IMG/VR virus record: IMGVR_UViG_3300043449_000692
Span: 32,212-96,211 of that record
Direction: 5' to 3' (one strand)
DNA from: a virus
Length of the DNA: 64,000 bases
This document shows positions 9,141 through 32,472 of this stretch, one piece after another (position 1 is the stretch's first letter; each line of letters starts with the position of its first letter). The notes below the pieces were generated by a model, which ran no database searches, had not been told where the DNA came from, and worked only from the letters and a program-made list of their open reading frames with translations. Position numbers and translations under genes: made by a program.

Positions 9141-10129
9141 CGCACTCTCCATTGTGAAAACCTCGCCAGTGCAGTCAGACCGCTGCACGAACACTCGTCA
9201 ATGATGGCTTGAACCTCTTCGGGAGATCGTCCCGCAAGCACCATGTCGTTGATGTCCTTCTCTCCGATGCTGCTGTTCCACACACAGACGGTATAGCCGC
9301 TGCGGATCGCGTCTTCCATCTTGTGTACAATCTCGGGATTGCGTGGTTCGTTGTCATATACAACAACGCAATCGCGGAAAAGTTTAGTGGCGTGAGCGAG
9401 TTCGCTCCCAGCAAGAGCAATAGAGTTACGCAGAAATACAGAGTCAATCGGACCTTCAACGGCGTACACCTTCTTTGAATAATCCAACCGATCTTCGCCG
9501 TAGACCGCTCGTCCGTCCTTGGTGAACTTCACGGTAATGTATCGGATTGAATTTTTGGAACCGCTCAAGCAGCGTCCTTGCGCCGCGAGGAGTTCCCCTG
9601 CTTTGTTCACGAATGGTATGACGATACGCTCGTCATTCGGAACGGTAGTGTATGTAGAGTCGATGGAGCGCACCCAATCACCAAACGCTTTTGAAAAATA
9701 GAACCGATCAAGGTGGGGAACCTTGCGGTTTTCCAAATATTGCCGTGCAGGGTTTGTTTCAGGCAGGGTGGACACGGGAGGAAGCCGTATCTGTGCCTTT
9801 GGAAGGGCTACAGCAGCCTCCACAGGCTTCACATAGTTGCTCTTACCGTTCTCCCCGTTTCGCCACCGTTCAAGCGCGTATTCCTGTGCCAGAGCAGGAG
9901 CCACGGTTTCCAAAAATCGGTACACCGAATGTCCTGCACCGCAGTTGTGACATTTGAAAAAATAGTCGTTCTTCTTGGGGAAGAAGAAGCCACGCGCCTT
10001 GCTCTTGCTCCGCTGTGAGTCACCACAGAGAGGACAACGGCAATTTGCAAGTGCTTGGGTCTTCCACTTGAATCGCTCAAGTTGGGGAGACACCATGTTA
10101 ATGTATTTCTTGTCGATATAGGTGGACAT
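9137..10129 (-). CDS. gp61: DNA primase (T4 gp61-like)
   Basis: Zn finger CRCPLCGDS...CHNCG; TOPRIM motifs VEGPIDS and KDINDM. Confidence 0.95.
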   Translation of the reverse strand: MSTYIDKKYINMVSPQLERFKWKTQALANCRCPLCGDSQRSKSKARGFFFPKKNDYFFKCHNCGAGHSVYRFLETVAPALAQEYALERWRNGENGKSNYVKPVEAAVALPKAQIRLPPVSTLPETNPARQYLENRKVPHLDRFYFSKAFGDWVRSIDSTYTTVPNDERIVIPFVNKAGELLAAQGRCLSGSKNSIRYITVKFTKDGRAVYGEDRLDYSKKVYAVEGPIDSVFLRNSIALAGSELAHATKLFRDCVVVYDNEPRNPEIVHKMEDAIRSGYTVCVWNSSIGEKDINDMVLAGRSPEEVQAIIDECSCSGLTALARFSQWRVR

Positions 10130-11124
10130 TACGGCTTGGATTGCTCTCGCTTGAAGTCAGAATCGTACATCATCTTTGCAAGGGAGATCATATCGTGCTT
10201 CGGCTCCCACTGCAAGACCCGCTTGGCTTTTTCAGGATTACCAAGCAGATACGGAACTTCGTTAGGGCGGAACAGACGGGGATCAATCTCCACATACTTG
10301 CGATAGTCACCAAGTCCCGCGTGGTCAAATACTACTTCCAAAAACTCACGAACCGAGTGGGTGCGGTTTGTTGCCACCACATAATCATCACCATGCGGTT
10401 GCTGAAGCATGAGCCACATGGCTTCCACATAATCACCAGCAAAACCCCAATCTCGCTTCGCGTCAATATTGCCCAGAAGAAGTTTTGACTGCTTTCCCTG
10501 TGCGATTCGTGCAGCAGCCATAGTGATCTTACGGGTCACGAATGTCTCGCCACGGCGTGGGCTTTCGTGGTTGAACAGGATTCCCGAACTTGCGTGAATC
10601 TTGTATGCCTCACGATACACGCGAGTCATGTGGTGAGCGTGGAGTTTAGCCACGGCGTAGGGCGAAACAGGCATCATGCGGCTGCTTTCAGTGTATCCTG
10701 TGTCTCCGTGGTCTGTTGAGTCACCAAACATCTCTGATGATGACGCTTGATAGAATCGTGTCTGTGGACTGACAGAACGAATTGCTTCAAGAATCTTCAG
10801 AGTTCCTCCAGCAATTCCGTCACTTGTATATTCAGGCACATCAAACGAAACAGCCACATGGGACTGCGCGGCAAGATTATACACTTCGTCTGGCTTGTAC
10901 TTCGCCAACAGATTGGTCATGGCTCCACCATCAGAGAGATCGTAGTAGCACATCTTGAATTGGGTGCAATCAATCGGGTGGTTGTAGATGTGATCGACTC
11001 GCTCAGTATTGATAAGCGAGGTGCGCCGCTTCAAGCCAATGACATAGTACCCCTTTGAGATCAGGAGATCCGCGAGGTAAGATCCGTCTTGTCCGTTTAC
11101 GCCAGTAATGATTGCTGTTTTCAT
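10129..11124 (-). CDS. gmd: GDP-mannose 4,6-dehydratase
   Basis: ITGVNGQDGSYLA, NLAAQSHVAVSF, YQASSSEMFG, SPYAVAK, LFNHESPRRGETFVTRKIT, RDWG. TAATG overlaps at both ends. Confidence 0.96.
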   Translation of the reverse strand: MKTAIITGVNGQDGSYLADLLISKGYYVIGLKRRTSLINTERVDHIYNHPIDCTQFKMCYYDLSDGGAMTNLLAKYKPDEVYNLAAQSHVAVSFDVPEYTSDGIAGGTLKILEAIRSVSPQTRFYQASSSEMFGDSTDHGDTGYTESSRMMPVSPYAVAKLHAHHMTRVYREAYKIHASSGILFNHESPRRGETFVTRKITMAAARIAQGKQSKLLLGNIDAKRDWGFAGDYVEAMWLMLQQPHGDDYVVATNRTHSVREFLEVVFDHAGLGDYRKYVEIDPRLFRPNEVPYLLGNPEKAKRVLQWEPKHDMISLAKMMYDSDFKREQSKP

Positions 11125-12539
11125 TAGATGTTCCAATCGCTAGTGTCACGCTTCTTGCCGAACTTCGCCGTGAAGTCCTTGGCACCGTATCCTGATCCGT
11201 ATCCGTCCTCTTCACCCTTTTGGATGTTCGCATCCATGAGGTCTTCCGAAACGCTGCTGTCAATATCATAGAACTTCATCTTGGCGTAGTTCAAGCCCAC
11301 GATGAACTTCTTGTTTGCAGCCTTGCCGTTGTAGCGGTTCTTCAACTGCTTCACCATGATCTGTCCTGCCTTCTCCAACTCATCGGTGGTGATGAGGGCA
11401 ATCATCAGGTCTGCGGTGTGGGGCAAGCCGAATGATTCTGAAGTATCCGTGAGGTCAACATCGGTGGACGAGAACCCTGCGCGGTTCACCTGTGTGGCAC
11501 TCACGATGGGAACATCCCGCTCCATTGCCAGACCACGCAACTCCTCGGCAATAGCCTTGATATAGCCATACGAGTTGATGTTGTTGCCGTGCTTGAATCG
11601 TGCAGACGAGCAGATGTTGATGTAGTCCACGAAAATGATGTCGGGGATGAACTGCTTCTTCAGGCGCAACTCGTCCAACAGGATGCGGAAGTGGTTCACA
11701 TTCGCAAAAGAGGTGGGGTATTCCTTCACGATGAGTTTACCGCTCACGCCACGGGTCGCACCCTTCAGTCGTTTCTCGTACATCTCAAGGGGCAAGTCCT
11801 GAAGTTCATCCATCGTGATGTCCATGATGTTTGCGTCAATGCGTTCTGCGATGCGCTCTTCAGCCATTTCAAGAGTGATGTACAGGACATTTCGGTTCTG
11901 CATGAGACACGCAGCCGCATGGTGGCACATGAACAGCGACTTGCCAACGCCTGTTCCTGCCATAATGATGTTCAGGGTCTTCGGAGAGATACCGCCCTTG
12001 GTGATGGTGTTGAACATCTCCAAGTCAAACGGAACCTTCCGCTCTACCCTGTGGTAGAACTCATGGCGAGACTCGTAGTCCTCAAGGAAATCGTGTCCCA
12101 CATTCGTGTCAAACGAAACCGCGAGAGCCTTCGACAGAATCTCGGGGAGAGCATGGGGAGTCCGCGCCTTGTCCTTGCCGTCTATGATCTGAATGGATTC
12201 AAGAATGGCATTGTAGATGGCTTTGTCCTTGCAGAACTTCTCGGTGGTGTCACTCAACCACTGCGTGTCCTGCTTCGGGGACTTCCCCATGTCTCCTACG
12301 AGGCTCTTGCACTTGGAGAACTCGTCCTCCGTCAATCCCTTGTTGTCTTCAAGTGCAATAAGCAGGGCATCTTTTGTGGGAATGCCCTTGTACTGATTCA
12401 CGAATTCCTTGATGGATCGGAACACAGCCCGATCCACGCGATCAAGGAAGTACTCCTCCTGCAAGAATGGAATGGTCTTCTTGCAGAATTCGCTGTCGTT
12501 AAGCAGCCCTGCCAGTATTGTCTTCTCGGTTTGGCTCAT
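11124..12539 (-). CDS. gp41: Replicative DNA helicase (T4 gp41-like)
   Basis: AGTGVGKS Walker A, ITLEMAEERIAERID, TSESFGLP, KQLKNRY. Confidence 0.96.
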   Translation of the reverse strand: MSQTEKTILAGLLNDSEFCKKTIPFLQEEYFLDRVDRAVFRSIKEFVNQYKGIPTKDALLIALEDNKGLTEDEFSKCKSLVGDMGKSPKQDTQWLSDTTEKFCKDKAIYNAILESIQIIDGKDKARTPHALPEILSKALAVSFDTNVGHDFLEDYESRHEFYHRVERKVPFDLEMFNTITKGGISPKTLNIIMAGTGVGKSLFMCHHAAACLMQNRNVLYITLEMAEERIAERIDANIMDITMDELQDLPLEMYEKRLKGATRGVSGKLIVKEYPTSFANVNHFRILLDELRLKKQFIPDIIFVDYINICSSARFKHGNNINSYGYIKAIAEELRGLAMERDVPIVSATQVNRAGFSSTDVDLTDTSESFGLPHTADLMIALITTDELEKAGQIMVKQLKNRYNGKAANKKFIVGLNYAKMKFYDIDSSVSEDLMDANIQKGEEDGYGSGYGAKDFTAKFGKKRDTSDWNI

Positions 12540-19947: not shown

Positions 19948-19953
19948 GCTGCT

Positions 19954-19981: not shown

Positions 19982-19985
19982 TAGG

Positions 19986-21561: not shown

Positions 21562-21589
21562 AGTATAGCGTATCGCTCAAAAGTGTCAA
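21562..21589 (-). promoter_or_regulatory. sigma70-type early promoter of dut
   Basis: TTGACA-16 nt-TATACT, then AAGGAG RBS. Confidence 0.8.
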
Positions 21590-21599: not shown

Positions 21600-22154
21600 T
21601 CAAATGTCGAGATATTCTTTGGTGATGATCCAGTATTGCGGGTATGGATCTGCTGCGCTTAATGCACCATCCACCTCTGTAATTTCAACAGTCATTTCAT
21701 AATCACTTTCACGATCAATTATAACACCCGTCCACCTGACAGCCGCTTGATTGATACTCTCCAAACCGTAAACGGTTGTTCCGATGTTGTAGTATGTGTC
21801 GATCAGAGACTCTTCTATAACGAAGGTTGTGTCCAATCCTACTTGTATAGAGTCTTCCGATCCAACAGGCTGGTCTGCAACATTAGTCCATACTTGAGTA
21901 TTGGAGTGAACTTGCGGAAATCTGTCTATGGGCGGAAAGTACACGGAAGCCTTGCACACCGTTGTTTGCTTTTGTTTTTGAATCACTACTCCTGAACGGC
22001 GGTCGTGTTTCAGCACATAGGTTACAGGATTTTTTCTGATCTGCACTCCGTCAGGCTTTGGTTTCACCGAGTAGGTCAACGAATCAACTACAATCTTGCC
22101 CTCGCTTTGCTTGGGCTTGAGTGAATACTCAACAGACTTTATCTTCAGTTTCAT
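21600..22154 (-). CDS. Hypothetical protein, possibly structural
   Basis: 184 aa, ATGA-coupled, short internal V(E/T)Y(S/V)(L/V)K repeats. Confidence 0.6.
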   Translation of the reverse strand: MKLKIKSVEYSLKPKQSEGKIVVDSLTYSVKPKPDGVQIRKNPVTYVLKHDRRSGVVIQKQKQTTVCKASVYFPPIDRFPQVHSNTQVWTNVADQPVGSEDSIQVGLDTTFVIEESLIDTYYNIGTTVYGLESINQAAVRWTGVIIDRESDYEMTVEITEVDGALSAADPYPQYWIITKEYLDI

Positions 22155-22573
22155 CGGGTGTTCTTTGGAGCCACCACGAACTGTCCATGCATGAGTTCTT
22201 CCGTGGTTACACCTCGGGTGATATCAAGCGAATATTTCCACGATCCTGCACGAACATAGCCCATCGTGGTGGCATCGGCGGTGATGAGAATCCCACCAGT
22301 GAAAACTGCACCTGTCTCTCCCTTGTTCAGGAAGATTCCGCCGCTTCCGCTGATGCCAGCAGTTGAGCCAAACTCGCCTGTGGAGCCTCCGCTAGTGACT
22401 CCTGAAGTGGTGATCATCAAGTACAGTTTGCTTGAATCATTGTTTGGACGAACATGGAAACGCGCAGTGTAACCATTAAGGTCAAAAGCGTTCCCGTTCT
22501 CGTCATAGTACTCTGCATGGAAGTTCAGAGTGGAGTACTGCTGTGCGTTGATGTCGTAGTATGCTGATGCCAT
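22151..22573 (-). CDS. BppU-like/Ig-like putative virion accessory protein
   Basis: YDI..QQYSTL...DLNGYTARFHVR...KYSLDI...GQFVV pattern. Confidence 0.6.
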   Translation of the reverse strand: MASAYYDINAQQYSTLNFHAEYYDENGNAFDLNGYTARFHVRPNNDSSKLYLMITTSGVTSGGSTGEFGSTAGISGSGGIFLNKGETGAVFTGGILITADATTMGYVRAGSWKYSLDITRGVTTEELMHGQFVVAPKNTR

Positions 22574-22704
22574 TACTGTGCCTTTGCTGCTGCATTACGG
22601 GCGCGATTTGCGCTCTTGACCAGTGCGGCTTCTTTTCTTGCGCGGCGAGTTTTTGCACTTGCAAATCCGCCTTTGCCTTTTCCTGATTTGCTGCTTCGTG
22701 CCAT
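22573..22704 (-). CDS. 43-aa highly basic peptide (not in the ORF track)
   Basis: MARSSKSGKGKGGFASAKTRRARKEAALVKSANRARNAAAKAQ; exact TAATG overlaps at both ends. Confidence 0.75.
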   Translation of the reverse strand: MARSSKSGKGKGGFASAKTRRARKEAALVKSANRARNAAAKAQ

Positions 22705-23936
22705 TACTTCCTCCGCTTCTTGAAACTGTGCTGCTTTGGAGTATTTAGCAAAGACGGAGCGGCTGTTACCTGTACAGGCTTCTGCATTTGCATCTGTGCA
22801 GCCATCTGCTGTTGGGCGGCTTCCATCTGCTGTACTTTTTCAATATACGCCCTGTGGTTGTTCTGATTGCGCTCCACCTCGCTCTGTGGGAGGCGATTCT
22901 GCTTCAGGAGTATTTCACAAGCAGCCAATCCAGACTTATAGTCATGCACATAGAACGCTGTGGCAGCGAGTTCATCCAGTGCCATCCACTTGTACACATT
23001 CGTGTCGATGAACAGGATGTCATGCTGTGGGTACGGGATCTGGGCGGCTTCCTTCGCAAAAAGGTAAGCCGCCCGTGGTCGCCCGTTCATCCGAAGAAAA
23101 CGCGCTATGGCATGGAGAGGTTCGGCACGGCAGGGTCGGTAGTCGTAGGCATCCAAGAACTTCTGCTGAACCACTGGCCAGGCAGACTCCTTGGAGATTT
23201 CGCAGAGCGCGATGCGGAACAGAGAGTAGTAGCACTCCTCTTCCCATCCGCCCATCTCAACCCGCTTGTAGTACGCTGCAATAGCCTTGTCCCACTGCTG
23301 CGAGTCAAAGTATGACTGCGCGAGATAGAACTGATAGCGGGTGTTGTTCGGCTCCTTCTTCAGTTCTTCCTCAAGCAGGATTGCGTCCTTGGAGTATTTC
23401 TCAACTGGAGTAACACCACCGTTTCGCTCCTGACCAAGGGTACGAGCCTCAAGATAGTACTCGCCTTCAATCTTCTCTTGGTGCAGAGGCTGCTTGTCGC
23501 AGTGAGCGTATTCATGGAGAACACCCACATACTTCCAGCCGATGCCTGTCTTGAAGATTTGGTTGCGCCACCACACACAGCCTTCTCGCCCGCACTTGAT
23601 GGCATAGGCATCCGCAGTCAGATTCCTGTTGTGTGGGTACTTGAAGTCGCCAACCACCTTGTCGTCTGCGTCAATCATCCAAGCGTAGTCTGCCTTGCCT
23701 GCACACAGATCAAGTGCTTCGCTGCGGTTGTGTCCGAATCCAACCCACGGACGCTCATGCAGTTCACCAGGAATGCCCTTCTCGGCAAAGTACTGCTTGA
23801 TGTACTCCTGTGTTCCGTCTGTAGAGCCTGTGTCCACGATAACCCAGTAGTCGATGTTCTTCCAAATAGAATCAAAGCACTCATGCAGAATCTTGGTTTC
23901 GTTCTTGACGATCATTGAGAGACATACTGTAGCCAT
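22704..23936 (-). CDS. GT2 glycosyltransferase with C-terminal TPR-like repeats
   Basis: CLSMIVKNE, IVDTGSTDGT, DADD, YVGVLHE, RYQFYLAQSYFD, RAEPL; AGGAG RBS. Confidence 0.9.
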   Translation of the reverse strand: MATVCLSMIVKNETKILHECFDSIWKNIDYWVIVDTGSTDGTQEYIKQYFAEKGIPGELHERPWVGFGHNRSEALDLCAGKADYAWMIDADDKVVGDFKYPHNRNLTADAYAIKCGREGCVWWRNQIFKTGIGWKYVGVLHEYAHCDKQPLHQEKIEGEYYLEARTLGQERNGGVTPVEKYSKDAILLEEELKKEPNNTRYQFYLAQSYFDSQQWDKAIAAYYKRVEMGGWEEECYYSLFRIALCEISKESAWPVVQQKFLDAYDYRPCRAEPLHAIARFLRMNGRPRAAYLFAKEAAQIPYPQHDILFIDTNVYKWMALDELAATAFYVHDYKSGLAACEILLKQNRLPQSEVERNQNNHRAYIEKVQQMEAAQQQMAAQMQMQKPVQVTAAPSLLNTPKQHSFKKRRK

Positions 23937-23958
23937 GTTCACGGTTCTCCTTGTACGG

Positions 23959-24900
23959 TTATTTATGCGCTGCGATCCAGTCTTCAAGACGAACTTTGGG
24001 AGTCCATCCAAGATGTTCGCGCGCTTTGCTGGCATTTGCTAGAGTGATACGAGCCTCGCCTTGGCGAGGAGGAATGTTTACTGCTTCCCCACCCATCATG
24101 GATACTATTTCATTCACGGAGTGATTGCGTCCAGTTCCTATGTTGTAAATCTGACCCCACTCCCAATTTGTATAAACTTGGCAACTTCCAACATCACGAA
24201 TATTGTATTCTGGAGAGGTGAACGCTGATGCCTTGATATTGGCTTCCACCACATCACTAACATGAGTGAAATCTCTCCGCTGATTGCCGTCACCCACGAT
24301 GGTCATGGGTTCTCCTGCGGCTCGTTGACGCAGGAATATACCGATCACTGGAGCGTACTGACCACGGAGCGGCTGACGCTCACCGTACACATTGAAATAA
24401 CGGAATATGATGGTCTGTAGTCCGTACAGTTTAGAGTACATCTTGCACAACTCTTCGCCTCCCACCTTGCTGACTGAATACGGATTCAGACAGTCGTTGG
24501 GCATGGTTTCAACAAGCGGAGGTGTGTTCTTCAGCCCGTATGCCGATGATGTGGACGAGTAGATTACTCGCTTGACACCGCAGACCCGAGCGCACTGCAA
24601 CACGCTAGCCGTGCCAAGCATATTGGCTTCCACCGCCTTGAGTGGATCAACAATACACGGTTGAATTCGCGCTTCAGCAGCAAGGTGAAAAACCGTGTCC
24701 ACACCCTCGTACAGTCTACGAACCATAGTGTAGTCATTGATGTCGTACTTGTAGTTCTTGGCAGCAGGATTCCAATAGAACTGATCATGTGCATCCGATG
24801 ATTCGTTGTCAATCACCGTGACATCGTGACCGTCTGCAACCAACCGATCTACAAGATTTGATCCAATGAATCCTGCTCCACCAGTTACTAGTGCTTTCAT
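23959..24900 (-). CDS. NAD-dependent NDP-sugar epimerase/dehydratase (GalE-like extended SDR)
   Basis: TGGAGFIGS, SSTSSAYG, YSVSK, RYFNVYG, RDFTHVSDVV. Confidence 0.92.
   Translation of the reverse strand: MKALVTGGAGFIGSNLVDRLVADGHDVTVIDNESSDAHDQFYWNPAAKNYKYDINDYTMVRRLYEGVDTVFHLAAEARIQPCIVDPLKAVEANMLGTASVLQCARVCGVKRVIYSSTSSAYGLKNTPPLVETMPNDCLNPYSVSKVGGEELCKMYSKLYGLQTIIFRYFNVYGERQPLRGQYAPVIGIFLRQRAAGEPMTIVGDGNQRRDFTHVSDVVEANIKASAFTSPEYNIRDVGSCQVYTNWEWGQIYNIGTGRNHSVNEIVSMMGGEAVNIPPRQGEARITLANASKAREHLGWTPKVRLEDWIAAHK
23960..23966 (-). promoter_or_regulatory. Putative late promoter ATAAATA upstream of the GT2-TPR gene
   Basis: Overlaps the epimerase stop, ahead of the RBS. Confidence 0.55.
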
Positions 24901-25499
24901 TTCCATTCACTCCAATTGATATTGAGTTCTTTGAGCGACCGTCTAATGTATCTTTCTGTTTCAGCATGACCAGGAACAAATTTTGAATGAAATTCAACGA
25001 TCAATCGGTCTATAAATCGTATAGTTCCTGTGTTGATCATTTTACAAAGAATAGCGTATTCTGCACCCTCAACATCCAACTTCATAATGATTTTTGGAGG
25101 ATGAGCCTTTCCATTCACATAGGTTTCATACAAATCTCTGATGAAATCTGATGTATCTATCGTAGTTCGCTCAATCAACTCTCCATGAATGGGAATAGAA
25201 AACTCGTTACTAGGAATTAGAGTGGATGTAGTTCCGTCTTTTTCTCCATATGCATCAGTCTGCATTCTAAAAGTTACTGATTGAACGCGATCATATAGAG
25301 GAGAATCGGAAAGCGTGATGTCGTAATCACCCCATCGTTTATGTTCTATGCTGTGTTTAAGTTTTGAAAAAGCCACAAAATTTGGTTCGAACATGAAAAC
25401 TTTACAAGGCAAGGTAATGAGTCCATTACTACGGATCTCATCAAATCCTTCTCCCCAATGAGATCCCCCATCAATAAAAATGGTAGAGTACTCATCCAT
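24897..25499 (-). CDS. FkbM-family SAM-dependent methyltransferase
   Basis: FIDGGSHWG, FEPN, MKLDVEGAEY, VEFH. Confidence 0.85.
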   Translation of the reverse strand: MDEYSTIFIDGGSHWGEGFDEIRSNGLITLPCKVFMFEPNFVAFSKLKHSIEHKRWGDYDITLSDSPLYDRVQSVTFRMQTDAYGEKDGTTSTLIPSNEFSIPIHGELIERTTIDTSDFIRDLYETYVNGKAHPPKIIMKLDVEGAEYAILCKMINTGTIRFIDRLIVEFHSKFVPGHAETERYIRRSLKELNINWSEWK

Positions 25500-26454
25500 A
25501 GTGCTTTGGATTGTTTAGGATAAACTCCATGTTTTCAACATACCACTGATAGGTCATCTTGATACCATCATATAGATTGATCTTGGGAAACCATCCCATC
25601 TTCTTTATTTTGTTGATGTTCAATGGACGCTTCATGGTTCCATTTGGTTTTGTCGTATCCCAAATGATTTCTCCCTGAAATCCGACTATCTCCTTCACCA
25701 TCTCTGCTACCTCTTTGATTGTGTATTCCACTCCACTGCTGATATTGATGATCTCGTGATGATCGTATTTCTGCATGACTTCAAAACAGGCTGAAGACAA
25801 GTCATCAATATACAGAAACTCTCTCTCTGGGCTGCCATCACCCCAACACTGAATCTTGTCCTTACCTTCAAGTTTGGCAGAGTAGAACTTCTGTATCAAA
25901 CCAGATATGACATGACTGTTTTGTGGATGGAAGTTGTCGCCAGGACCGTACAGATTAGACGGCATTACAGACACGGCATTGAATCCATACTGCTTGCGAT
26001 AGAATTCACACATCTTTATGCCGCATATCTTTGCGATTGCATACGCTTCATTGGTTGTCTCTAGAGGACCAGTCATAAGATGGTTCTCTCGGATGGGCAA
26101 TTGCGATTCCTTTGGATAAATGCAAACAGATCCCAAAAATAGGAACTTTTTCACACCTGTTTCATAGGAACTTTGAATCAGATTGCTCTGTATCATTATG
26201 TTGTCGTATATGAACTCAGCGGGGTATGTGCTATTGGCAAGTATGCCACCAACCTTTGCAGCAGCATCAAATACAAACTCGGGCTTTTCTTGGAGGAAAA
26301 ACTCTCGCACAGCCTGCTGATTGCGAAGATCCAATTCTTTCCTAGAACGAACAACCAAATTCGTAAATCCTTTGCTCTCCAAACAGCGAAGGATCGAAGA
26401 GCCAGCAAGACCGCGATGACCCGCTACAAAAATCTTGGAGTTAGTTTCCATCAT
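25492..26454 (-). CDS. fcl: GDP-L-fucose synthase (epimerase/reductase)
   Basis: AGHRGLAGS, AAKVGGILAN, LGSVCIYPK, NEAYAIAK, PSNLYGPGDNF, SHVI, WGDGSPEREFLY. Confidence 0.95.
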   Translation of the reverse strand: MMETNSKIFVAGHRGLAGSSILRCLESKGFTNLVVRSRKELDLRNQQAVREFFLQEKPEFVFDAAAKVGGILANSTYPAEFIYDNIMIQSNLIQSSYETGVKKFLFLGSVCIYPKESQLPIRENHLMTGPLETTNEAYAIAKICGIKMCEFYRKQYGFNAVSVMPSNLYGPGDNFHPQNSHVISGLIQKFYSAKLEGKDKIQCWGDGSPEREFLYIDDLSSACFEVMQKYDHHEIINISSGVEYTIKEVAEMVKEIVGFQGEIIWDTTKPNGTMKRPLNINKIKKMGWFPKINLYDGIKMTYQWYVENMEFILNNPKHYG

Positions 26455-26456
26455 TA

Positions 26457-26807
26457 TCAGTTACCTTTGTAAATCTTTACGGAATCTTCAGTCAAAGACC
26501 TACCATTCAATATCGCGGCATCCACCATGCGATTGATAGCCTGAATATACTGTGGTCGCTTTTGCTTGAAGCAGGTGTCGATTTTTCTCTTCAGAGAGGC
26601 AACTTCTTCATCTGTTTTTGCAACACCGATCATGTCTTCCAAAAACCATGTTCTGATGTGTAGTATACACAGTTTTTCAATAACTTCTCCCAAATTATCT
26701 GTTGCAACTAGATCGTTTGGTAGATCAGGAATCCCATCAGCGTTCAGTGTTTCTCTAATCTTTTCATTCATAGCGGCTTCAATCACACTAGCAATATCAA
26801 TACTCAT
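26457..26807 (-). CDS. DUF4254-like helical protein
   Basis: GEVIEKLCILHIRTWFLED...KRKID...R motif. Confidence 0.55.
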   Translation of the reverse strand: MSIDIASVIEAAMNEKIRETLNADGIPDLPNDLVATDNLGEVIEKLCILHIRTWFLEDMIGVAKTDEEVASLKRKIDTCFKQKRPQYIQAINRMVDAAILNGRSLTEDSVKIYKGN

Positions 26808-26825
26808 AACAATCCTTTCGTTAGA

Positions 26826-27584
26826 TTAAATCAAAACAGTCCAGTCTTTACTGGTTGCATTCTTACCATGCCCACAAAACGAAAACATATTTTCGGCTTG
26901 ACGCACATACCAATGGATAAACAGACGAACTCTGTCTGTATTTAGTGTCTCTATGTAAGCCCTGAATGAACTTTCCATCAAATGTACCTGTGTTGCTCGC
27001 TCTAGTATGAGTCCAAAGTTCAAAATAGATTCCGAAACATCGTTCTCTATTACCTTTAGGTTTTCAGAGTTGTACTTGGATACCCTGGAATAATCAATCA
27101 GTCTTCCTCTAGATGAATCACCATGTACGAATATGTACGGTACATTGTCAGGATTCAATTTTTTGTAGACACGCTCTTCTTCTTCATAGTCTCTTTCATA
27201 CTTAAATTGGGTATATCTGACAGAAAAATCATATCCGAGAGCAGCGTAAAATCGTTGGTGACAATCAAACTGTGGAAACGCCTGCTGCAATTTCCAGTAG
27301 TTTTCGTGACCAACAATAAGGGTGTGACTTGGTGCTAATGTTGATACAAGTCTATCGACCTCTTTTCGCTCACCCTCTCCATCAAACTCTCCTGCGGTAG
27401 AAACAGAAACACATTGTATCTTTGGTTCGTCACGATACATTGTCGATACAGTTTGAAGATGCTGCTTCTTGACAACAAGATACAGTTTTTCAAAATCGTT
27501 GTCGAACAATATCTTTCGAACCAATCCGTTACAGGATATACAGTCTCCAAGACCAAGATGATGATACAGCAGAAGGGTTTTCAT
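26826..27584 (-). CDS. Putative GT-B glycosyltransferase (fucosyltransferase/GT9-like)
   Basis: HHLGLGD at the N-terminus, YIFVH, HLMESSF; two genes upstream of fcl. Confidence 0.6.
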   Translation of the reverse strand: MKTLLLYHHLGLGDCISCNGLVRKILFDNDFEKLYLVVKKQHLQTVSTMYRDEPKIQCVSVSTAGEFDGEGERKEVDRLVSTLAPSHTLIVGHENYWKLQQAFPQFDCHQRFYAALGYDFSVRYTQFKYERDYEEEERVYKKLNPDNVPYIFVHGDSSRGRLIDYSRVSKYNSENLKVIENDVSESILNFGLILERATQVHLMESSFRAYIETLNTDRVRLFIHWYVRQAENMFSFCGHGKNATSKDWTVLI

Positions 27585-27586
27585 TA

Positions 27587-28351
27587 TCAGTTCCTATTGT
27601 TGTGGAGATCAACAAAAAACCAATCATCAGCAGAACCGTGTTGTCTCCTCCAATTATTCCCCCATTGAGTAAAATCATCAACACAAGTAACGGAATGGAG
27701 TTTGCACATCACACTCCATATGGATTGATCATGTCTATTTTCGCAAAATCCTTCTACTTCTTTTTGATGCGTACTGGGACTATCATCCACCAAATTTTTC
27801 ATGCAGGCGTACTGCAAGCAGTCTTTTATGAATTTTTTAGCAAACGCAGTTCCTCGCATCAATTTGAATCCAGATTGTATTTGCTGTGTGTTCTTTATTT
27901 TGTTTCTCTTCTCTTCTTCGAGCGAATCAACGCCAAGAACTCTGAACACATCGGATTTTGTCCACTTCCATTCAACATGGTAGTCTGGTCTATCTGGAGT
28001 CAAAAAACAAATCACACCCTTTGGATCATTCATAACCAAATCAAAAAGAGGTTGTGCAGGCTTGATGAAATTGGCATCACAGTCACAATACATCAATATG
28101 TCGGTTTCCTTCAGACCAGACAGTATCTTGTCTTGGAAATAATATTTCCACAACCCGTATCCAGCCAGTCTCTTGCAGTCTAGTATGTGTTTATTAGATT
28201 CGTAAAAGTTAGGATCAATATTCTCTCTCTTCATCTGATAAACGATGTTGAACCCCGCAAGCAAAGCGCACTGAGAGTTCTTTGATTGGGATTGATAGAA
28301 CCCTCCATCTGCGTAATTCACCAGTATTTTTTTGTTTGATATGTTAGGCAT
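27587..28351 (-). CDS. Putative GT-A glycosyltransferase ('RHDQS' family), paralog 1
   Basis: GYGLWKYY, YCDCD, WTKSD, NRHDQSIWS. Confidence 0.7.
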   Translation of the reverse strand: MPNISNKKILVNYADGGFYQSQSKNSQCALLAGFNIVYQMKRENIDPNFYESNKHILDCKRLAGYGLWKYYFQDKILSGLKETDILMYCDCDANFIKPAQPLFDLVMNDPKGVICFLTPDRPDYHVEWKWTKSDVFRVLGVDSLEEEKRNKIKNTQQIQSGFKLMRGTAFAKKFIKDCLQYACMKNLVDDSPSTHQKEVEGFCENRHDQSIWSVMCKLHSVTCVDDFTQWGNNWRRQHGSADDWFFVDLHNNRN

Positions 28352-29153
28352 AGTCAGTCATCGTTGATTCTACCAGAGTTTCATGGAGTCGGAACACTTT
28401 GTTGCGACAAGACAGTATTCTACATCCAAGATCAGCCTGACACAAGCCAAAAAATTCATCTGCTGCACTGAATACTGTCTCGTAATCTGATATTGATCGT
28501 TTGATTTTTTCTAATCCTGATCTGCTTATCATGTATGCAGATGATCCGCTATACCACTGAACAGCGGTTTCGTATACTTCTTCATTGCGATACCCATCGG
28601 GACTAGCACTATAGTCACGATGGAAGCCTGTTCCCAACAAGAAAAAGTCAAACTCTTCTTTTAAGAATTGTGATAATGCGTTGGTCAAGAATTGGGATTC
28701 TCTGGACACTATATCCACATCGTCTTCAAGAATCAATGCATAATCGCATCCGCTATCATCAAATGCTTTTAAACACTTCATGTGAGATATACTACAACCA
28801 ATGGTTCCAAGATATAGAGCGGTTGTATACGGATTGTATCTGCTGCGAATCATTCCTGGCGGGATATACCTATAAACTTCTACTTGCCCGTCTGATGGGC
28901 GAGTATATTTGATGATGGTTGGTTTGACTACACCAAAAATTCGATCTCCACCCGCCAACACAACTTCATTTAGTTCAATTTCTTTTTCAGTATGATTGTC
29001 CAGCATATGCTTTCGATCTACGCCCTCACAGAAGTTTATTGGGAATCCAACATCCTTCATTTGGGAATCCACGCTCTTTTTTCTCTCTGGAGAGCGAAGC
29101 AAATTAATGCACAGAGGAAGAATAGTCTTTCCTTCGATGGTTGCAATATTCAT
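28344..29153 (-). CDS. GT25-family glycosyltransferase
   Basis: INLLRSPERK, GVD, IGCSISH, LILEDDV, AYMISRSG. Confidence 0.85.
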   Translation of the reverse strand: MNIATIEGKTILPLCINLLRSPERKKSVDSQMKDVGFPINFCEGVDRKHMLDNHTEKEIELNEVVLAGGDRIFGVVKPTIIKYTRPSDGQVEVYRYIPPGMIRSRYNPYTTALYLGTIGCSISHMKCLKAFDDSGCDYALILEDDVDIVSRESQFLTNALSQFLKEEFDFFLLGTGFHRDYSASPDGYRNEEVYETAVQWYSGSSAYMISRSGLEKIKRSISDYETVFSAADEFFGLCQADLGCRILSCRNKVFRLHETLVESTMTDYA

Positions 29154-29944
29154 AGGGTGACCGTTTTTACTGATGCATCAAACATTCTCATACCACTGAA
29201 GACGAACCAAGACGCGAGATATCTCTCCATCAACCCACCCTGCTGCCTACAGGTCTTTGCAGGATCAAAGCAGTCAATGTTTTTGTTGTCTGCAACCCAA
29301 CGCAGATAGCACACCAAATCCTTGAACTCGTTTCTGCCTATGATGAATGACGAGCAAAGTGGCAACTTGTTTTCATCGTGGAGGAAAATATCGTACTGCG
29401 TCTTGCGTGTTCCGTAGTACTCGTTGAAGTGTTCAGCCATGACTGAATAGCAGGACGGCTGACCCTGCAAACGCTGTGGATCGGTATAATCCATGCAAGT
29501 GCGATTCACTGGTAGTTCATATTCGCGGATAGGAAATGTGCGTAGTGCAAAGTACTCACGATCACTACGGATTCCCTTTGAGCCTTGCAGTTTCCAGTCA
29601 AAGAAATCAAACACAGGCATACCAGAAAAGTCAATCTCCATGCCGTGATCATATTGCGTCATGCCAATCCAATCACCAGTAATAACGGAATCAAAGGTTG
29701 ATGGATCGGAAACAAGATTCAACAGGAATTCAAATTCAGCCCATCGCGGACCATACGGAACAAATCCTGATAGCGTATTTGCATCAAGCACAGCAGAACG
29801 AATCCAATCTCTTTTTACCGAGTATTCGTGGTTTCCTACTCGGACAAAGGTGAACTTGTGCCGAGACTCCTTGTACGGCTCGTAAATGTCTTCACGAAGC
29901 CCCTTGTGAAAGAGGCAGAACATCTGAATATTTGGAGTGGTCAT
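29150..29944 (-). CDS. DUF4422-like putative glycosyltransferase
   Basis: WAEFE, WIGMTQY, SSFI, GGLMERY; ATGA-coupled on both sides. Confidence 0.55.
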   Translation of the reverse strand: MTTPNIQMFCLFHKGLREDIYEPYKESRHKFTFVRVGNHEYSVKRDWIRSAVLDANTLSGFVPYGPRWAEFEFLLNLVSDPSTFDSVITGDWIGMTQYDHGMEIDFSGMPVFDFFDWKLQGSKGIRSDREYFALRTFPIREYELPVNRTCMDYTDPQRLQGQPSCYSVMAEHFNEYYGTRKTQYDIFLHDENKLPLCSSFIIGRNEFKDLVCYLRWVADNKNIDCFDPAKTCRQQGGLMERYLASWFVFSGMRMFDASVKTVTL

Positions 29945-30651
29945 CGTGGATCTCGGGTGTGAAAAATGTATTGGTGTTCTTCCGTATTCTCGCCGTGTTG
30001 AACACCCCACTGTGTGGGATCAGGCAATATAGTGATCCCGTGCTTCTTTGTCAAGAGGCTCCATATGGATTGATCGTGGCGATGATCTTTGAAGTCGGGT
30101 TCAACCCATCCATCAGAGTTCGGAGAATCCGTGACCAAATGTGGATTGGTAGCCAAAGACAAGTATTCAGTCAACAATCCCCGTGCAAAATCAGTCCCTC
30201 TGAAGCACATGAAACTAGCCATTCGTTGGGGGCTATCGGTGTATTCTGAAGAATACATTCCCATATGCAGGAACAGATCCCGCTTCGTCCATAACCTTTC
30301 GGAATGCTTTCCTGCTAGAGTAAAACAAAGAACTCCTCGCTTGTCAGCCCGAACAGAATCAAAAACTGGTTCTATTCTACGCACAAAAACTGATCCAGAA
30401 TCAGCATAAAACAAGATATCATCTTCTCTCATGGTCTTCAAAATGCGTTGAATGAAATACGGCTTCCATAGCCAGTATCCAACACCTCTGCGCTGATTCA
30501 GAATATCACTGTGGCGTGTAGAAAAATCAGAGTCAATCTCATTCCGATTCATCTGATATACCACATTAAATCCTGCTGCAAGACCTGTCTGACTGTTCTT
30601 GAACTGAGACTCCAAGAATTTTCCGTCTGCGTAATTTAGAAGAATTTTCAC
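29941..30651 (-). CDS. Putative GT-A glycosyltransferase ('RHDQS' family), paralog 2
   Basis: GYWLWKPY, YADSG, WTKRD, HRHDQSIWS. Confidence 0.7.
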   Translation of the reverse strand: MKILLNYADGKFLESQFKNSQTGLAAGFNVVYQMNRNEIDSDFSTRHSDILNQRRGVGYWLWKPYFIQRILKTMREDDILFYADSGSVFVRRIEPVFDSVRADKRGVLCFTLAGKHSERLWTKRDLFLHMGMYSSEYTDSPQRMASFMCFRGTDFARGLLTEYLSLATNPHLVTDSPNSDGWVEPDFKDHRHDQSIWSLLTKKHGITILPDPTQWGVQHGENTEEHQYIFHTRDPR

Positions 30652-31289
30652 TGCTGCTCCTGTGGAACAAGCGAAGCAGTGGTCTTTGAGTTGTAGATGT
30701 AGCCGTGCAAAGAATCATCAATGTGATGCTCGGTCTGAATCTTCGGATACAGACGCATGAGCCAGTCAATGTCTTCCGTGGACTGCCCATTGGCTCCGTA
30801 GACAGGATTGAATGCCTCGGTGATTGCAATGTCGCGCCGCCACAGGCACATATGGTAGGGAGGACGCTTGATGCCACCAAGGAATCCGTCTTCGTCCCGC
30901 CACAGATGACCGTGGGGGTTTCCGATACCGAACTCTACATCCATTGGCTCACCGTCAAGGTTGCACCACTGATTGAAAGTAATGCAGTCAACCCCTTCGT
31001 GTTCATCAATGGCTTGCAGAATCTTGCTCATGTAGTCCTTGCTCACGGCATCATCATCATCCAAGAAGGCGATATACTTGCCACGCGCTGACATGAGCAG
31101 GTCATTACGCTTTTCTGAAATGCTTTTGGAGCGGTTGTCTAGCATGACAAGGATTTCCACCGACTTCGGCTGTCCCGTGGCATCGGCTTGCTTCTGAAGA
31201 TGCTCCACAGCAGACTTCATGGATTCGATCCGCTCGGGAATGGACAGGATCAGAACACTGAACTTGATATCACTTGCTGGTACTGGCAT
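30648..31289 (-). CDS. GT2-family glycosyltransferase
   Basis: FSVLI, KRN..L..ARGKYIAFLDDDD, EDIDW. Confidence 0.85.
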   Translation of the reverse strand: MPVPASDIKFSVLILSIPERIESMKSAVEHLQKQADATGQPKSVEILVMLDNRSKSISEKRNDLLMSARGKYIAFLDDDDAVSKDYMSKILQAIDEHEGVDCITFNQWCNLDGEPMDVEFGIGNPHGHLWRDEDGFLGGIKRPPYHMCLWRRDIAITEAFNPVYGANGQSTEDIDWLMRLYPKIQTEHHIDDSLHGYIYNSKTTASLVPQEQQ

Positions 31290-31974
31290 AGAACATAGTC
31301 TCCATGTCAAACTTGTTTGCGGCTCGCCGCTTGAAGGTTTCACCATCAACACCATACATTTCTTTGTTCTCATTCCTTGCATGGAGTTCGTCCCACGGTT
31401 CACCGCTCCACTGATGCTGAATGATACACAGGTCGCAGCGGCGCAGTTTACCCAATGCCATGCACACCTGTGTCTGCTCGTTGTCGCAGTACAGGGACTT
31501 GTATTCAGGGTTGTAGATGTAGCCGAAACGCTTGTATAGGGGGAAGCCCATGACCGTCAGAGTCATCAGGGGATCTTCCTTTGGGCGCAGACCGTCCCAG
31601 AACTTGATTGCACCGTCATAGTCGGGGAAAGCCTGCTCGTACACCTTGGCAATGATGTCATCGTAGCCCATCTGCACAGGAACCATGTCATCGGACGCAA
31701 GCAGCAGCACATCGCCGTCCACGCCCTCTAGGTTAGCGTTGCAGGCTTCGATCTTGCTCTTGGAGTGTCCGTAGAAGCACTCAATGTTTGCACAACGAGC
31801 GCGAGTGGCAATCCACTGCTGCATCTCGGGGGTGTTCATGGTGGCATCGTCCTCGTCCATCGTGACGATGAAACGCACATCATGCCGTCCGCTAAGGAAG
31901 GTAAGATAGCGCGTGAACACAGCCTTGAACTTGTCGGGACGATTACGGGTTGGAAACTTAATCACTAGTCTCAT
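31270..31974 (-). CDS. GT-A (GT2-like) glycosyltransferase
   Basis: FPTRNRP, DEDD, KIEACN, ASDDM, YCDNE. Confidence 0.75.
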   Translation of the reverse strand: MRLVIKFPTRNRPDKFKAVFTRYLTFLSGRHDVRFIVTMDEDDATMNTPEMQQWIATRARCANIECFYGHSKSKIEACNANLEGVDGDVLLLASDDMVPVQMGYDDIIAKVYEQAFPDYDGAIKFWDGLRPKEDPLMTLTVMGFPLYKRFGYIYNPEYKSLYCDNEQTQVCMALGKLRRCDLCIIQHQWSGEPWDELHARNENKEMYGVDGETFKRRAANKFDMETMFYASTSK

Positions 31975-31990
31975 TATGAATATCTCTCTT

Positions 31991-32428
31991 TCACTCTTCG
32001 GGCTTCATGGTCTTCTTTGACCGTCCTATATGGTATTTAGGGCAGAGTTCCCACTCCCCCTTCTCCTTGAACGGAAGGATCTTTATTTTGTTGAGGGGAA
32101 CCTTGTCCGTGATCTTTGTCTTGTCCACGATCTTCACCAAGCCCCACTCCTCAAGCAGACACGCGATGGTGTTGCGCCGTCCAGTGTCTTCGGTGTTGAT
32201 GGAGGTTGGTAGATCATCAAGCGCAAACATCTCCTTGAAGTGGACAATGTAGTACTTGCCCTTCTTGTGGAGAATATGGCATGACTGCCACAACTTCTTT
32301 TCGGCTCGGGAAGATACGCCAATGCGGGTCAGCGTTTCACGGACTTTCAAGAAGTCATCAGGTTTCTGTAGCGTGACCTCAAGCAGATCCTTTGTCTCAA
32401 GGTCGATATAGCGTTCGTTTTGTTCCAT
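31991..32428 (-). CDS. regA: Translational repressor RegA
   Basis: DDFLKVRETLTRIG, QSCHILHKKGKYYIVHFKEMFALD, RRNTIA. Confidence 0.96.
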   Translation of the reverse strand: MEQNERYIDLETKDLLEVTLQKPDDFLKVRETLTRIGVSSRAEKKLWQSCHILHKKGKYYIVHFKEMFALDDLPTSINTEDTGRRNTIACLLEEWGLVKIVDKTKITDKVPLNKIKILPFKEKGEWELCPKYHIGRSKKTMKPEE

Positions 32429-32465
32429 GTTGCGTTCACTCCCAAATATTGAACAGACACGGAAC

Positions 32466-32472
32466 TATTTAG
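32466..32472 (-). promoter_or_regulatory. Putative late promoter CTAAATA upstream of regA and the glycosyltransferase cluster
   Basis: Intergenic, immediately after the gp62 stop. Confidence 0.6.

Follow-up and report, generated by a model that had tools for sequence, protein, structure and literature searches.

A swappable block of sugar-making genes beside a protein-type glycosyltransferase gene in an uncultured T4-like water phage may serve to glycosylate the phage particle

The window, a 64,000-nucleotide stretch of IMG/VR record IMGVR_UViG_3300043449_000692, comes from an uncultured T4-like water phage. It contains an exchangeable block of about 8 kb whose genes encode soluble sugar-making proteins, with a glycosyltransferase gene, GT2-TPR, at the end of the block (Table 1). 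ORF mapping placed 13 tightly coupled minus-strand genes between regA and the dUTPase gene, whose products include three glycosyltransferases assigned at family level (GT2, GT25 and GT2-TPR), five weaker candidates, Fcl, a GalE-like epimerase and an FkbM-type methyltransferase. Between regA (31991-32428) and the 184-aa ORF (21600-22154), neighbouring genes overlap by up to 20 nt or are at most 22 nt apart, confirming the coupled run after regA that an earlier, sequence-only reading of this DNA had described. The GC content of the island core is 0.40-0.44 versus about 0.5 in its flanks, and its surroundings form a replication and nucleotide-metabolism module; near the cluster lie a dUTPase-like gene, a DNA methyltransferase and a weak match to DUF1599 ('nucleotide modification associated domain 1'). 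The sigma-70-like promoter before the dUTPase gene is the probable boundary of the late unit.

Table 1 Features of the island and associated genes, with positions in the window.
Feature	Position	Strand	Basis or remark
GDP-mannose 4,6-dehydratase (Gmd), gp41 helicase-gp61 primase interval	10129..11136	-	TIGR01472, 432 bits, above cut-off
Sigma-70-like promoter TTGACA-16-TATACT, before dUTPase gene	21562..21589	-	
184-aa ORF, no assigned function	21600..22154	-	start overlaps stop of 140-aa gene; poorly conserved
140-aa Ig-like putative virion protein, G/S/T-rich	22151..22573	-	AF2 + Foldseek; phrog_1084
43-aa very basic small ORF, between two TAATG overlaps	22573..22704	-	conserved in 13 loci
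GT2-TPR, 410 aa, soluble GT-A + TPR candidate protein glycosyltransferase	22704..23936	-	PF00535, E 2e-11; weak TPR matches
GalE-like NDP-sugar epimerase or dehydratase (SDR), conserved right flank	23959..24906	-	PF01370, E 8e-57; TIGR01179, E 5e-47 (under equivalog cut-off)
Late-promoter-like CATAAATA, overlapping epimerase stop, 23 nt before GT2-TPR ATG	23960..23967	-	consensus match
FkbM-type methyltransferase	24897..25499	-	PF05050, 23.0 bits, cut-off 22.7 (borderline); TIGR01444, E 2e-7
GDP-L-fucose synthase (Fcl)	25492..26454	-	NF047922, E 3e-133, 444 bits, full length
116-aa weak DUF4254-like protein	26457..26807	-	PF14063, E 9e-4, under cut-off
252-aa protein, HHLGLGD N-terminus	26826..27584	-	Atlas nearest named cluster GT9, 0.92
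'RHDQS' paralog 2, 254 aa	27587..28351	-	paralogy to paralog 1
GT25-family glycosyltransferase	28344..29153	-	PF01755, E 2e-13; phrog_2835
265-aa protein, no putative function assigned	29150..29944	-	13 close, unnamed homologs only
'RHDQS' paralog 1, 236 aa	29941..30651	-	Atlas leads to GT34 and TOD1/MUCI70
GT2-family glycosyltransferase, conserved left flank	30648..31289	-	PF00535, E 7e-8; phrog_8858, E 8e-32
234-aa candidate glycosyltransferase, conserved left flank	31270..31974	-	PHROG family only: phrog_14945 'glycosyltransferase', E 2e-8
regA translational regulator	31991..32428	-	PF01818, E 2e-42
Late-promoter-like CTAAATA, 37 nt before regA start	32466..32472	-	consensus match

Most gene labels of the sequence-only reading held (GT2, GT25, Fcl, Gmd, epimerase, GT2-TPR and the paralogy of the 'RHDQS' proteins), with FkbM borderline; its DUF4254 label stayed under the cut-off, its GLGD GT-B label corresponds to the weak Atlas lead to GT9, and its 'DUF4422-like' label for the 265-aa protein was not confirmed, as Pfam, NCBIfam and PHROG searches all returned no match. 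The NF047922 and TIGR01472 matches support the proposed supply of GDP-L-fucose by Fcl and Gmd, the gene for the latter lying 12 kb off the island at a position kept in close relatives. The epimerase gene is immediately 5' of GT2-TPR in most close loci, and FkbM domains recur in related islands. Five candidate transferases have no family-level assignment. Homologues of the 234-aa ORF occur in 15 related loci, and its searches gave no Pfam or PDB match; in the neighbouring GT2 gene, Met39 of the 251-aa ORF is the probable start. The 'RHDQS' pair proved genuinely paralogous (43% identity, E 3e-62) and belongs to a family with no Pfam model and 6635 cluster representatives, elsewhere fused to GT10, GT47, GT2/GT7C and FkbM domains; these fusions and the Atlas leads suggest the weaker label of a glycan-pathway domain. 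The 252-aa HHLGLGD protein, possibly a GT9-like GT-B enzyme by its Atlas lead, has 162 unnamed homologs, all without Pfam match, and a PDB search found none.

The true start of GT2-TPR is Met34 of the long ORF, and its C-terminal tail is basic. In a profile search of the PDB it matched GmaR (E 1.5e-14), SunS (2e-9) and a ThuS-like protein (9e-9), with other GT2 enzymes at E 2e-3 at best, and in a fold search its AF2 model (pLDDT 90) matched SunS and ThuS over 396 of 410 columns (E 8e-16 to 5e-15), followed by TarP and TarS at only E 4e-7. Judged by profile and by full-length predicted fold, GT2-TPR is closest to the protein/peptide glycosyltransferases GmaR, SunS and ThuS, a kinship new here that supports the protein-glycosyltransferase type proposed earlier. 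Like SunS/ThuS (PDB 7msn, 7msk) and Listeria GmaR, it has an N-terminal GT-A (GT2) domain with DxD followed by a TPR-type helical domain, and those enzymes are soluble and cytoplasmic, as GT2-TPR is predicted to be. It differs in that it is phage-encoded, with a late-type promoter and the basic tail; moreover, it shares only about 14-16% identity with SunS/ThuS, lacks the neighbouring Cys-rich precursor peptide and bacteriocin export gene of their glycocin systems, and does not have the antirepressor domain of GmaR, which adds O-GlcNAc to flagellin (PMC9638930). Its best viral relatives are giant-virus proteins (about 30-40% identity, TM 0.75-0.83), from Indivirus, pithoviruses, Harvfovirus and CeV-01B (31-40%), in which the module is a domain of 466-1164 aa proteins with a putative role, whereas here it is a 410-aa protein. 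The hosts of giant viruses have no LPS. Among isolates the best match to GT2-TPR is Tunturi_5 (39%); a search for an ortholog in cultured cyanomyoviruses found none, and psbA is absent from this phage lineage.

Immediately downstream, the AF2 model of the 140-aa Ig-like protein (pLDDT 92) resembles the collar of the T5 tail tip and a baseplate protein of phage 80alpha in Foldseek (8hqz, 7qg9 and 6v8i), which suggests a tail structure. In most island-bearing loci GT2-TPR ends in a TAATG overlap with the gene that follows, either the Ig-like gene or the 43-aa ORF; these overlaps and the predicted tail-tip-collar fold uphold the reported coupling to structural-looking genes. The arrangement is similar in architecture and gene order to C. 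difficile SgtA/BclA3, where a GT-A + TPR enzyme adds GlcNAc to Thr of BclA3, the surface protein encoded directly downstream, and the glycan is then extended (PMC7157674). The likeness extends to two relatives, one (L017) with an Ig-like paralog fused to a G-x-T collagen-like fibre and another (L053) with a fibre bearing short collagen-like stretches directly after GT2-TPR; unlike BclA3, the Ig-like neighbour in the window has no collagen repeats. The collagen-like fibre of the window has charged G-E-R triplets rather than G-x-T, and the fibres described earlier as very S/T-rich proved only moderately so (S+T 18-25%). An extra S/T tail, as in glycosylated mycobacteriophages, was looked for on the major capsid protein and none was found. 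Both the capsid and the fibre type count against glycosylation of the virion.

The late-promoter motifs reported at 32466 and 23960 are present, and the latter, CATAAATA, is followed by a GGAG ribosome-binding site. A second CTAAATA (32034-32040) lies at the regA 3' end inside P-K-Y codons, with the first island gene 59 nt on. MTAAATA occurs 16 times in the window, compared to 5.15 +/- 2.27 expected, with 14 of the 16 on the coding strand, and stands 7-59 nt before 10 gene starts, mostly of structural genes. Across relatives, the NNTAAATA box is kept 5' of GT2-TPR in 44 of 67 distinct loci with differing upstream genes (epimerase, gmd, regA), suggesting that the GT2-TPR unit is expressed late; the motif calls are consensus matches, one of them within conserved regA codons, and this too counts against the virion interpretation.

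GT2-TPR is a conserved syntenic gene on more than 200 viral contigs, and the island 5' of it is hypervariable, with 261 gene clusters in 61 loci, 158 of them singletons. One clade has retained GT2-TPR with neither the island nor a neighbouring Ig-like gene, in the order regA, GT2-TPR, dUTPase, so the functions of island and GT2-TPR could be separate. GT2-TPR would then be a stand-alone core enzyme that transfers a single host-donor sugar onto a phage or host protein, and the variable block a separate accessory cassette inserted where the genome tolerates it. The extreme variability of the block and the differing GC of island core and flanks also fit this scenario, which we nevertheless regard as improbable: wherever the island occurs, the block shares the orientation of GT2-TPR and directly abuts it, most often with an NDP-sugar enzyme as its last gene; most of the examined loci with an island have an Ig-like gene beside GT2-TPR, and no locus lacking the island does; and, by their commonest Pfam families, the related cassettes hold glycan-building functions only rather than a random accessory mix.

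The regA-to-gp43 region of T4-like phages is a recognised insertion hot spot for accessory genes. The usual acceptors of GT25, GT2 and GT9-like enzymes are lipid-linked or LPS molecules, and peripheral enzymes of that kind likewise have no membrane helices. This location and these usual acceptors weigh against virion glycosylation, as do the five unassigned transferases. The location, the foreign GC and the GT25, GT2 and GT9-lead families, typical of LPS synthesis, favour an 'LPS/cell-wall' accessory block as in P-SSM2, S-SCSM2R and pelagimyophages; retention of GT2-TPR without the island in one clade also fits. On the inner side of the membrane, the soluble transferases would modify lipid-linked or core-LPS intermediates of the host; host flippase and ligase would export the product, and the altered surface would block superinfection or re-adsorption of progeny to debris. 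GT2-TPR might modify flagellin, pilin or another protein of the host surface. P-SSM2, S-SCSM1/2R and pelagimyophages have comparable glycosyltransferase/NDP-sugar epimerase blocks in hypervariable T4-like regions, with GT25, GT2, GT10 and GT11 families, and these are read as host-surface or DNA modification, host O-chain modification being the published view of similar aquatic T4-like islands (PMC7029224; PMC12801897). The present lineage differs from that group, whose cultured cyanomyoviruses yielded no GT2-TPR ortholog, and has no psbA. We consider remodelling of the host envelope a tentative, rather unlikely alternative, because the anchor enzyme falls in the protein-transferase clade and not in lipid/LPS clades, its nearest viral relatives are in giant viruses of eukaryotes, and late-type boxes and tail-gene coupling are ill suited to a pre-lysis job. 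Furthermore, no initiating transferase, flippase, polymerase or ligase came up in the 61 islands: the first three are missing from their 25 commonest Pfam families, and almost no membrane proteins occur among the 678 ORFs 5' of GT2-TPR. In the window no island ORF has a membrane helix or a 19-residue window with Kyte-Doolittle hydropathy of at least 1.5, so the earlier remark that the cluster holds no membrane-bound or export gene stands.

T-even and some other phages have glycosylated DNA. The transferases could similarly put a complex glycan on modified bases to evade restriction, as the nucleotide-module setting, the dUTPase-like gene, the weak DUF1599 match and the DNA methyltransferase might suggest; diverse DNA glycans are reported as products of virus glycosyltransferases (Pyle et al. 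2024, as cited within PMC12619734). This is very improbable given that a search for a ThyA-like dCMP/dUMP hydroxymethylase came up empty both in this contig and in five relatives (one a complete 147-kb genome), the sole thymidylate-synthase-type gene seen is ThyX, GT2-TPR is nearest to protein transferases, and late-type promoters do not suit replication-coupled modification. A TET/JBP search of this contig also gave no match, as did control genomes.

Phage-encoded cytoplasmic protein glycosylation, with proteins of the phage's own particle as the most likely acceptors, is the best supported reading, in which we place about even confidence, based on the relatives of GT2-TPR, its synteny beside the hypervariable island, the conserved late box, the stop overlaps, the giant-virus kinship and the missing hydroxymethylase, all new here. 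Of the virion glycosylation proposed by the sequence-only reading, the enzyme type, late box, virion-type coupling, lack of export genes and GDP-L-fucose supply held up; the very S/T-rich fibres did not. An enzyme of protein type, under a late-type promoter and joined to a tail-structure gene, suggests that the phage probably sugar-coats its own particle. Chloroviruses and mimiviruses use their own soluble transferases and sugar-nucleotide enzymes to make fucose-containing, methylated glycans on particle proteins. Actinobacteriophages carry glycans on the C-termini of capsid and tail-tube subunits (Freeman et al. 2023, as cited in PMC12619734 and PMC12801897); as far as these citing accounts go, phage-encoded glycosyltransferases, here with a methyltransferase, are likewise proposed to decorate the particle, whereas the present phage is T4-like, has no capsid extension, and has a far larger, hypervariable island with its own nucleotide-sugar synthesis and a GT-A + TPR enzyme as its anchor.

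Beyond the observed gene identities, solubility, synteny, promoter box and fold relationships, we infer late expression, the acceptor, the order of steps and the place of the product on the virion as follows. The fixed part would be a late-transcribed unit of GT2-TPR followed by the overlapping genes of the small basic peptide and the Ig-like tail-structure protein. In GT2-TPR, the protein substrate would be bound by the TPR half and would receive its first sugar, on Ser, Thr or Cys, from the GT-A half. The variable block, whose origin is best explained by horizontal transfer within this evenly held scheme, would supply activated sugars, namely GDP-L-fucose (made by Gmd and Fcl from host GDP-mannose) and a 4-epimerised UDP-sugar, and up to seven further soluble transferases and the FkbM-type methyltransferase would extend and cap the glycan sugar by sugar. 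Related phages swap the block and would thereby place different glycans on the same scaffold.

GT2-TPR, the 410-aa candidate protein glycosyltransferase encoded at the far end of the minus-strand sugar-gene island behind regA, was taken to start at Met34 of the long open reading frame because its homologs align from that residue on. The N-terminal GT2/GT-A domain matched PF00535 (E 2e-11), and its DTGSTD and IDADD motifs are invariant in 28 homologs; the C-terminal part gave weak Pfam TPR matches, and in an AF2 model (pLDDT 90) 10 helices extend across residues 177-384. A profile of the 28 homologs retrieved GmaR (E 1.5e-14), SunS (2e-9), and a ThuS-like enzyme (9e-9), with the remaining GT2 enzymes (TarS, chondroitin synthase) at E 2e-3 or worse. 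Using Foldseek, the model aligned over its full length with SunS and ThuS (396 columns, E 8e-16 to 5e-15), nine orders of magnitude ahead of TarP/TarS (E 4e-7). Given these profile and fold matches to GmaR, SunS, and ThuS, GT2-TPR has the sequence and predicted fold of the soluble protein-glycosyltransferase class. The protein ends in a variable low-complexity linker followed by a basic tail (K-x-F-K-K-R-K-K type), which is kept in nearly all 28 aligned homologs and might serve in membrane, nucleic-acid, or capsid targeting.

Among BFVD matches to the model, the nearest viral relatives were domains of 466-1164-aa giant-virus proteins (31-40% identity), which lie closer to GT2-TPR than any cultured phage protein does. 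Viruses with such a GT-A plus TPR domain include Indivirus (40% identity, TM 0.83), Pithovirus LCPAC302/202, Harvfovirus, and CeV-01B. The eukaryotic hosts of giant viruses have no LPS, which makes a conserved role in LPS modification improbable for GT2-TPR. These matches tie the glycosylation enzymes of phages to those of giant viruses and hint at gene flow between the two in water.

GT2-TPR relatives were detected in at least 214 viral contigs, and the wider family comprises thousands of environmental proteins; 80 loci with GT2-TPR identities of 49-89% were kept. Every informative locus places the gene between regA and a dUTPase plus DUF1599-like pair, and when loci were picked via the DUF1599-like neighbour, 37 of 55 carried GT2-TPR, including every close relative with enough upstream sequence. 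The interval between regA and GT2-TPR is either occupied by a 7-9.6-kb island or, in one clade, empty (10-35-nt gaps). This clade, with GT2-TPR alone, counts against a role of the whole system in glycosylating the virion; that GT2-TPR and the island have two independent functions is in our view unlikely. The closest relatives have in common the two regA-side island genes and the epimerase gene on the GT2-TPR side, with a differing island middle. The 678 ORFs upstream of GT2-TPR at 61 distinct loci fell into 261 clusters, 158 of them singletons. Among 141 cluster representatives from these 61 islands, the Pfam families found were mostly NDP-sugar SDR, Gmd, FkbM and other methyltransferases, GT2, GT47, GT10, and GT11, together with DegT aminotransferases, C-methyltransferases, and TPP-dependent enzymes. 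Judged by these families, the related islands are predicted to equip the phages to make sugars that are rare, methylated, or fucosylated.

In the window, genes from regA to the 184-aa ORF are packed: neighbours overlap by up to 20 nt or stand at most 22 nt apart, and the island core has a reduced GC content of 0.40-0.44 (see table). Firm assignments were obtained for Fcl, Gmd, a GalE-like SDR epimerase, GT2, GT25, and GT2-TPR. The sequence-only reading had credited the phage with its own GDP-L-fucose supply, and profile matches to both pathway enzymes, Gmd and Fcl, agree with this prediction; the Fcl score of 444 bits lies below the strict 500-bit equivalog cut-off of NF047922. No GT10 or GT11 fucosyltransferase-family enzyme was found in the window's island; both families are present among the related islands. 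The same reading had named several further enzymes, and these labels fared unevenly: the two RHDQS proteins, named by a sequence motif, are indeed paralogous (43% identity), the FkbM methyltransferase survived as a borderline match, and the DUF4254-like protein scored under its cut-off. The 252-aa ORF called a 'GLGD' GT-B protein gave only an Atlas lead to GT9, and the 'DUF4422-like' label of the 265-aa ORF was not confirmed, as its homolog search yielded just 13 proteins, all close and unnamed. The 234-aa ORF had a single match, to a PHROG family that bears the name glycosyltransferase. The RHDQS paralogs and the 265-aa, 252-aa, and 184-aa ORFs matched nothing when searched as single sequences in Pfam (with E allowed up to 10), NCBIfam, and PHROGs; no relative in the PDB came up with profiles built for the RHDQS, 252-aa, and 234-aa families.

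Positions of features discussed in the text (window coordinates unless a related locus is named)
Feature	Position	Strand	Details
Collagen-like fibre	5146-8586	-
CTAAATA box in fibre ORF	8418-8424
UvdE to DNA methyltransferase gene set	17299-20630	-
184-aa ORF	21600-22154
43-aa very basic ORF	22573-22704	-	12 K/R; TAATG overlaps at both ends
GT2-TPR	22704-23936	-	start (Met34) at 23936
RHDQS paralogs	27587-28351 and 29941-30651	-	no Pfam model
regA	31991-32428
CTAAATA box ahead of island	32034-32040	-
Gmd			12 kb from island, between gp41 and gp61; TIGR01472, 431.8 bits, above 415-bit cut-off
Fcl			GDP-4-keto-6-deoxymannose epimerase/reductase; NF047922, E 3e-133, positions 2-306 of 308 aligned
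551-aa fibre, related locus L017	11796-13448

The RHDQS family has 6635 cluster representatives, 1356 of them at E 1e-30 or better. Elsewhere the domain shares a polypeptide with GT10 (a single distant protein), GT47/RXYLT1, GT2/GT7C, FkbM, or class I methyltransferase domains; these fusions suggest a role in glycan synthesis without proving that the domain is itself a transferase, and RHDQS may define a new family of glycan enzymes.

The motif MTAAATA occurs 16 times in the window compared to 5.15 +/- 2.27 expected, a count reached in 0 of 100 shuffles. Fourteen of the 16 copies are on the coding strand, and 10 of these 14 stand 7-59 nt ahead of a gene start; most of the genes concerned encode fibres or proteins the size of tail-tube or baseplate components. 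Late-promoter motifs had been proposed from the sequence, and putative boxes were recovered ahead of regA, the first island gene, GT2-TPR, and the small ORF that follows it. The start region of GT2-TPR consists of CATAAATA followed by GGAG and the ATG, and a NNTAAATA box precedes the gene in 44 of 67 distinct related loci. This box is kept despite swaps of the upstream gene, either overlapping the epimerase stop or lying within the C-terminal P-K-Y codons of regA, and where gmd sits upstream the box behind it is a perfect TATAAATA. In island-less loci (L057-L073 range) a regA-embedded CTAAATA box precedes GT2-TPR, and the regA codon choice CCT AAA TAC is retained in 9 distinct loci, suggesting dual use. 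The window's CTAAATA box ahead of the island also lies inside regA Pro-Lys-Tyr codons (CCT AAA TAC). Upstream of the dUTPase gene, the 60-nt intergenic gap contains a near-consensus sigma-70-type promoter, which suggests a unit boundary at this point. Going by these signals, GT2-TPR is apparently expressed late.

The proposed coupling of GT2-TPR to structural-type genes held: its stop overlaps the 43-aa ORF (TAATG), whose own stop overlaps the start of a 140-aa gene. Thirteen related loci keep the small basic ORF at a length of 43-45 aa; many others lack it, and there GT2-TPR runs directly into the 140-aa gene through the same TAATG overlap. The peptide could be an acceptor, an internal DNA-binding peptide, or neither. 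The 140-aa protein was modelled as an Ig-like sandwich (pLDDT 92), with best solved matches to the ~140-aa tail-tip collar protein of T5/DT57C and a baseplate protein of phage 80alpha (TM ~0.6). In two related loci, L017 and L018, a 551-aa collagen-like fibre of the G-x-T type (long G-P-T / G-N-T repeats) begins with a paralog of this protein as its N-terminal domain and is encoded directly behind the first stand-alone Ig-like copy; in another, L053, GT2-TPR is followed by a fibre protein with short collagen-like stretches. Island-less genomes carry distant Ig-like gene copies at other sites. In the SunA-SunS system the substrate gene adjoins the transferase gene. SgtA (GT-A plus TPR) primes Thr of BclA3, a spore-surface protein encoded immediately downstream (PMC7157674), and flagellin is O-GlcNAcylated by GmaR (PMC9638930). 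In the window, the genes behind GT2-TPR, in overlapping frames, are the 43-aa basic ORF and the Ig-like virion gene, whose products are at most candidate acceptors.

The window also encodes a fibre in which 56 consecutive collagen-like triplets are of the charged G-E-R / G-E-Q / G-P-Q type; the real start of the fibre gene is probably just downstream of the thyX stop, at a CTAAATA box. A role for GT25 as a galactosyltransferase of this fibre, like the collagen galactosyltransferases, was dropped given the fibre's G-E-R triplets; no lysyl hydroxylase came to notice either. Some features of the particle proteins count against glycosylation of the virion: the fibres, described earlier as S/T-rich, are only moderately so, the collagen-like fibre is of the G-E-R type, and the major capsid protein has no S/T-rich C-terminal extension (residues 1-476 of 481 align with cyanophage capsid proteins). 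In its capsid protein the phage thereby differs from actinobacteriophages, whose already known virion glycosylation involves an S/T-rich C-terminus of the capsid or tail-tube protein.

An alternative is that the island products remodel the host surface. As the sequence-only reading had it, membrane and export genes are absent from the window's island, with no 19-mer of hydropathy >=1.5 in any protein. Only 6 of the 678 ORFs in the 61 related islands reach hydropathy 1.8, a strongly hydrophobic segment occurs in 1 of 678, and the 25 most frequent Pfam families in these islands include none for an initiating transferase, flippase, polymerase, ligase, or transporter. Wzx/Wzy- or ABC-dependent O-antigen/EPS clusters, in contrast, include membrane-bound steps. 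To our knowledge, peripheral LPS transferases likewise lack membrane helices. This, and the publication of similar islands as host O-chain or DNA modification (PMC7029224; PMC12801897), also weigh against the virion reading, and we regard host-surface remodelling as doubtful, though the likeliest of the alternatives. For DNA as the acceptor, T-even-type glycosylation depends on a base-modifying enzyme, whereas PF00303 (ThyA-like hydroxymethylase) is absent from the contig and five relatives, one of them 100% complete. PF12851 (TET/JBP) was unmatched in the contig, in a search where control genomes were uninformative. The lack of a hydroxymethylase in both the contig and the complete relative disfavours DNA modification, which we consider very improbable.

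The source is a 96-kb IMG/VR viral contig (completeness estimate 53%). Its T4-type replication genes run gp45, gp44, gp62, regA ... gp43, UvsX, gp41, gp61 and all lie on the minus strand, along with the structural genes. When the 11-kb region was compared by Megablast with 50,697 phage records, no match was obtained. The clamp loader and major capsid protein are just 53-57% identical to their cyanomyovirus counterparts, and psbA was not found in four large relatives or a complete 147-kb relative, which together suggest an uncultured sister lineage; the label 'cyanophage' was dropped because the complete relative lacks psbA, though replication and capsid genes are nearest to cyanomyoviruses. 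That relative, G002 (147,410 bp with terminal repeats), has a GT2-TPR 78% identical to the window's and gmd at the same remote position, and neither psbA nor a ThyA-like gene was found in it; it is a potentially useful reference genome for the lineage. Between the dUTPase/DUF1599-like pair and gp43, the window carries genes for a UvdE UV-endonuclease, a destabilase/lysozyme-like protein, an S-adenosylmethionine decarboxylase-like protein, and an N6/N4 DNA methyltransferase, a set unusual for a T4 replication module.

The leading reading, to which we give an even chance, is that the island and GT2-TPR glycosylate virion or other phage proteins. It leads because the conserved enzyme belongs with the protein transferases, appears to be late and is coupled to a tail-structure gene, because the whole system is soluble with no membrane step of lipid-linked glycan export, because no hydroxymethylase for DNA glycosylation was found even in the complete relative, and because the nearest viral relatives of GT2-TPR are in giant viruses. 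More tentatively, a protein-priming GT-A plus TPR module common to aquatic T4-like phages and giant viruses may start particle-protein glycosylation, with a recombining cassette island between conserved flanks yielding a strain-specific rare-sugar coat. Sugar-gene islands are common and already known in aquatic T4-like phages, where the default annotation is host LPS or cell-wall genes. New here are a conserved anchor enzyme of GT-A plus TPR type, preceded by a putative late-type box and coupled to a structural gene, the cassette-like variability of the island, and the giant-virus relatives of GT2-TPR. The island also brings to light two large enzyme families without a Pfam model. A conserved protein-type transferase that is apparently late and coupled to a tail-structure gene offers a testable alternative, that these abundant phages coat themselves with strain-specific glycans. 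If true, phages of aquatic hosts of the Gram-negative type would come in viral 'serotypes', and many annotated 'LPS genes' of marine and freshwater T4-like phages would in fact be virion genes. Glycan coats, if present, would alter adsorption, decay, grazing, aggregation, and antibody or lectin recognition, and would change how environmental viral proteomes are read.
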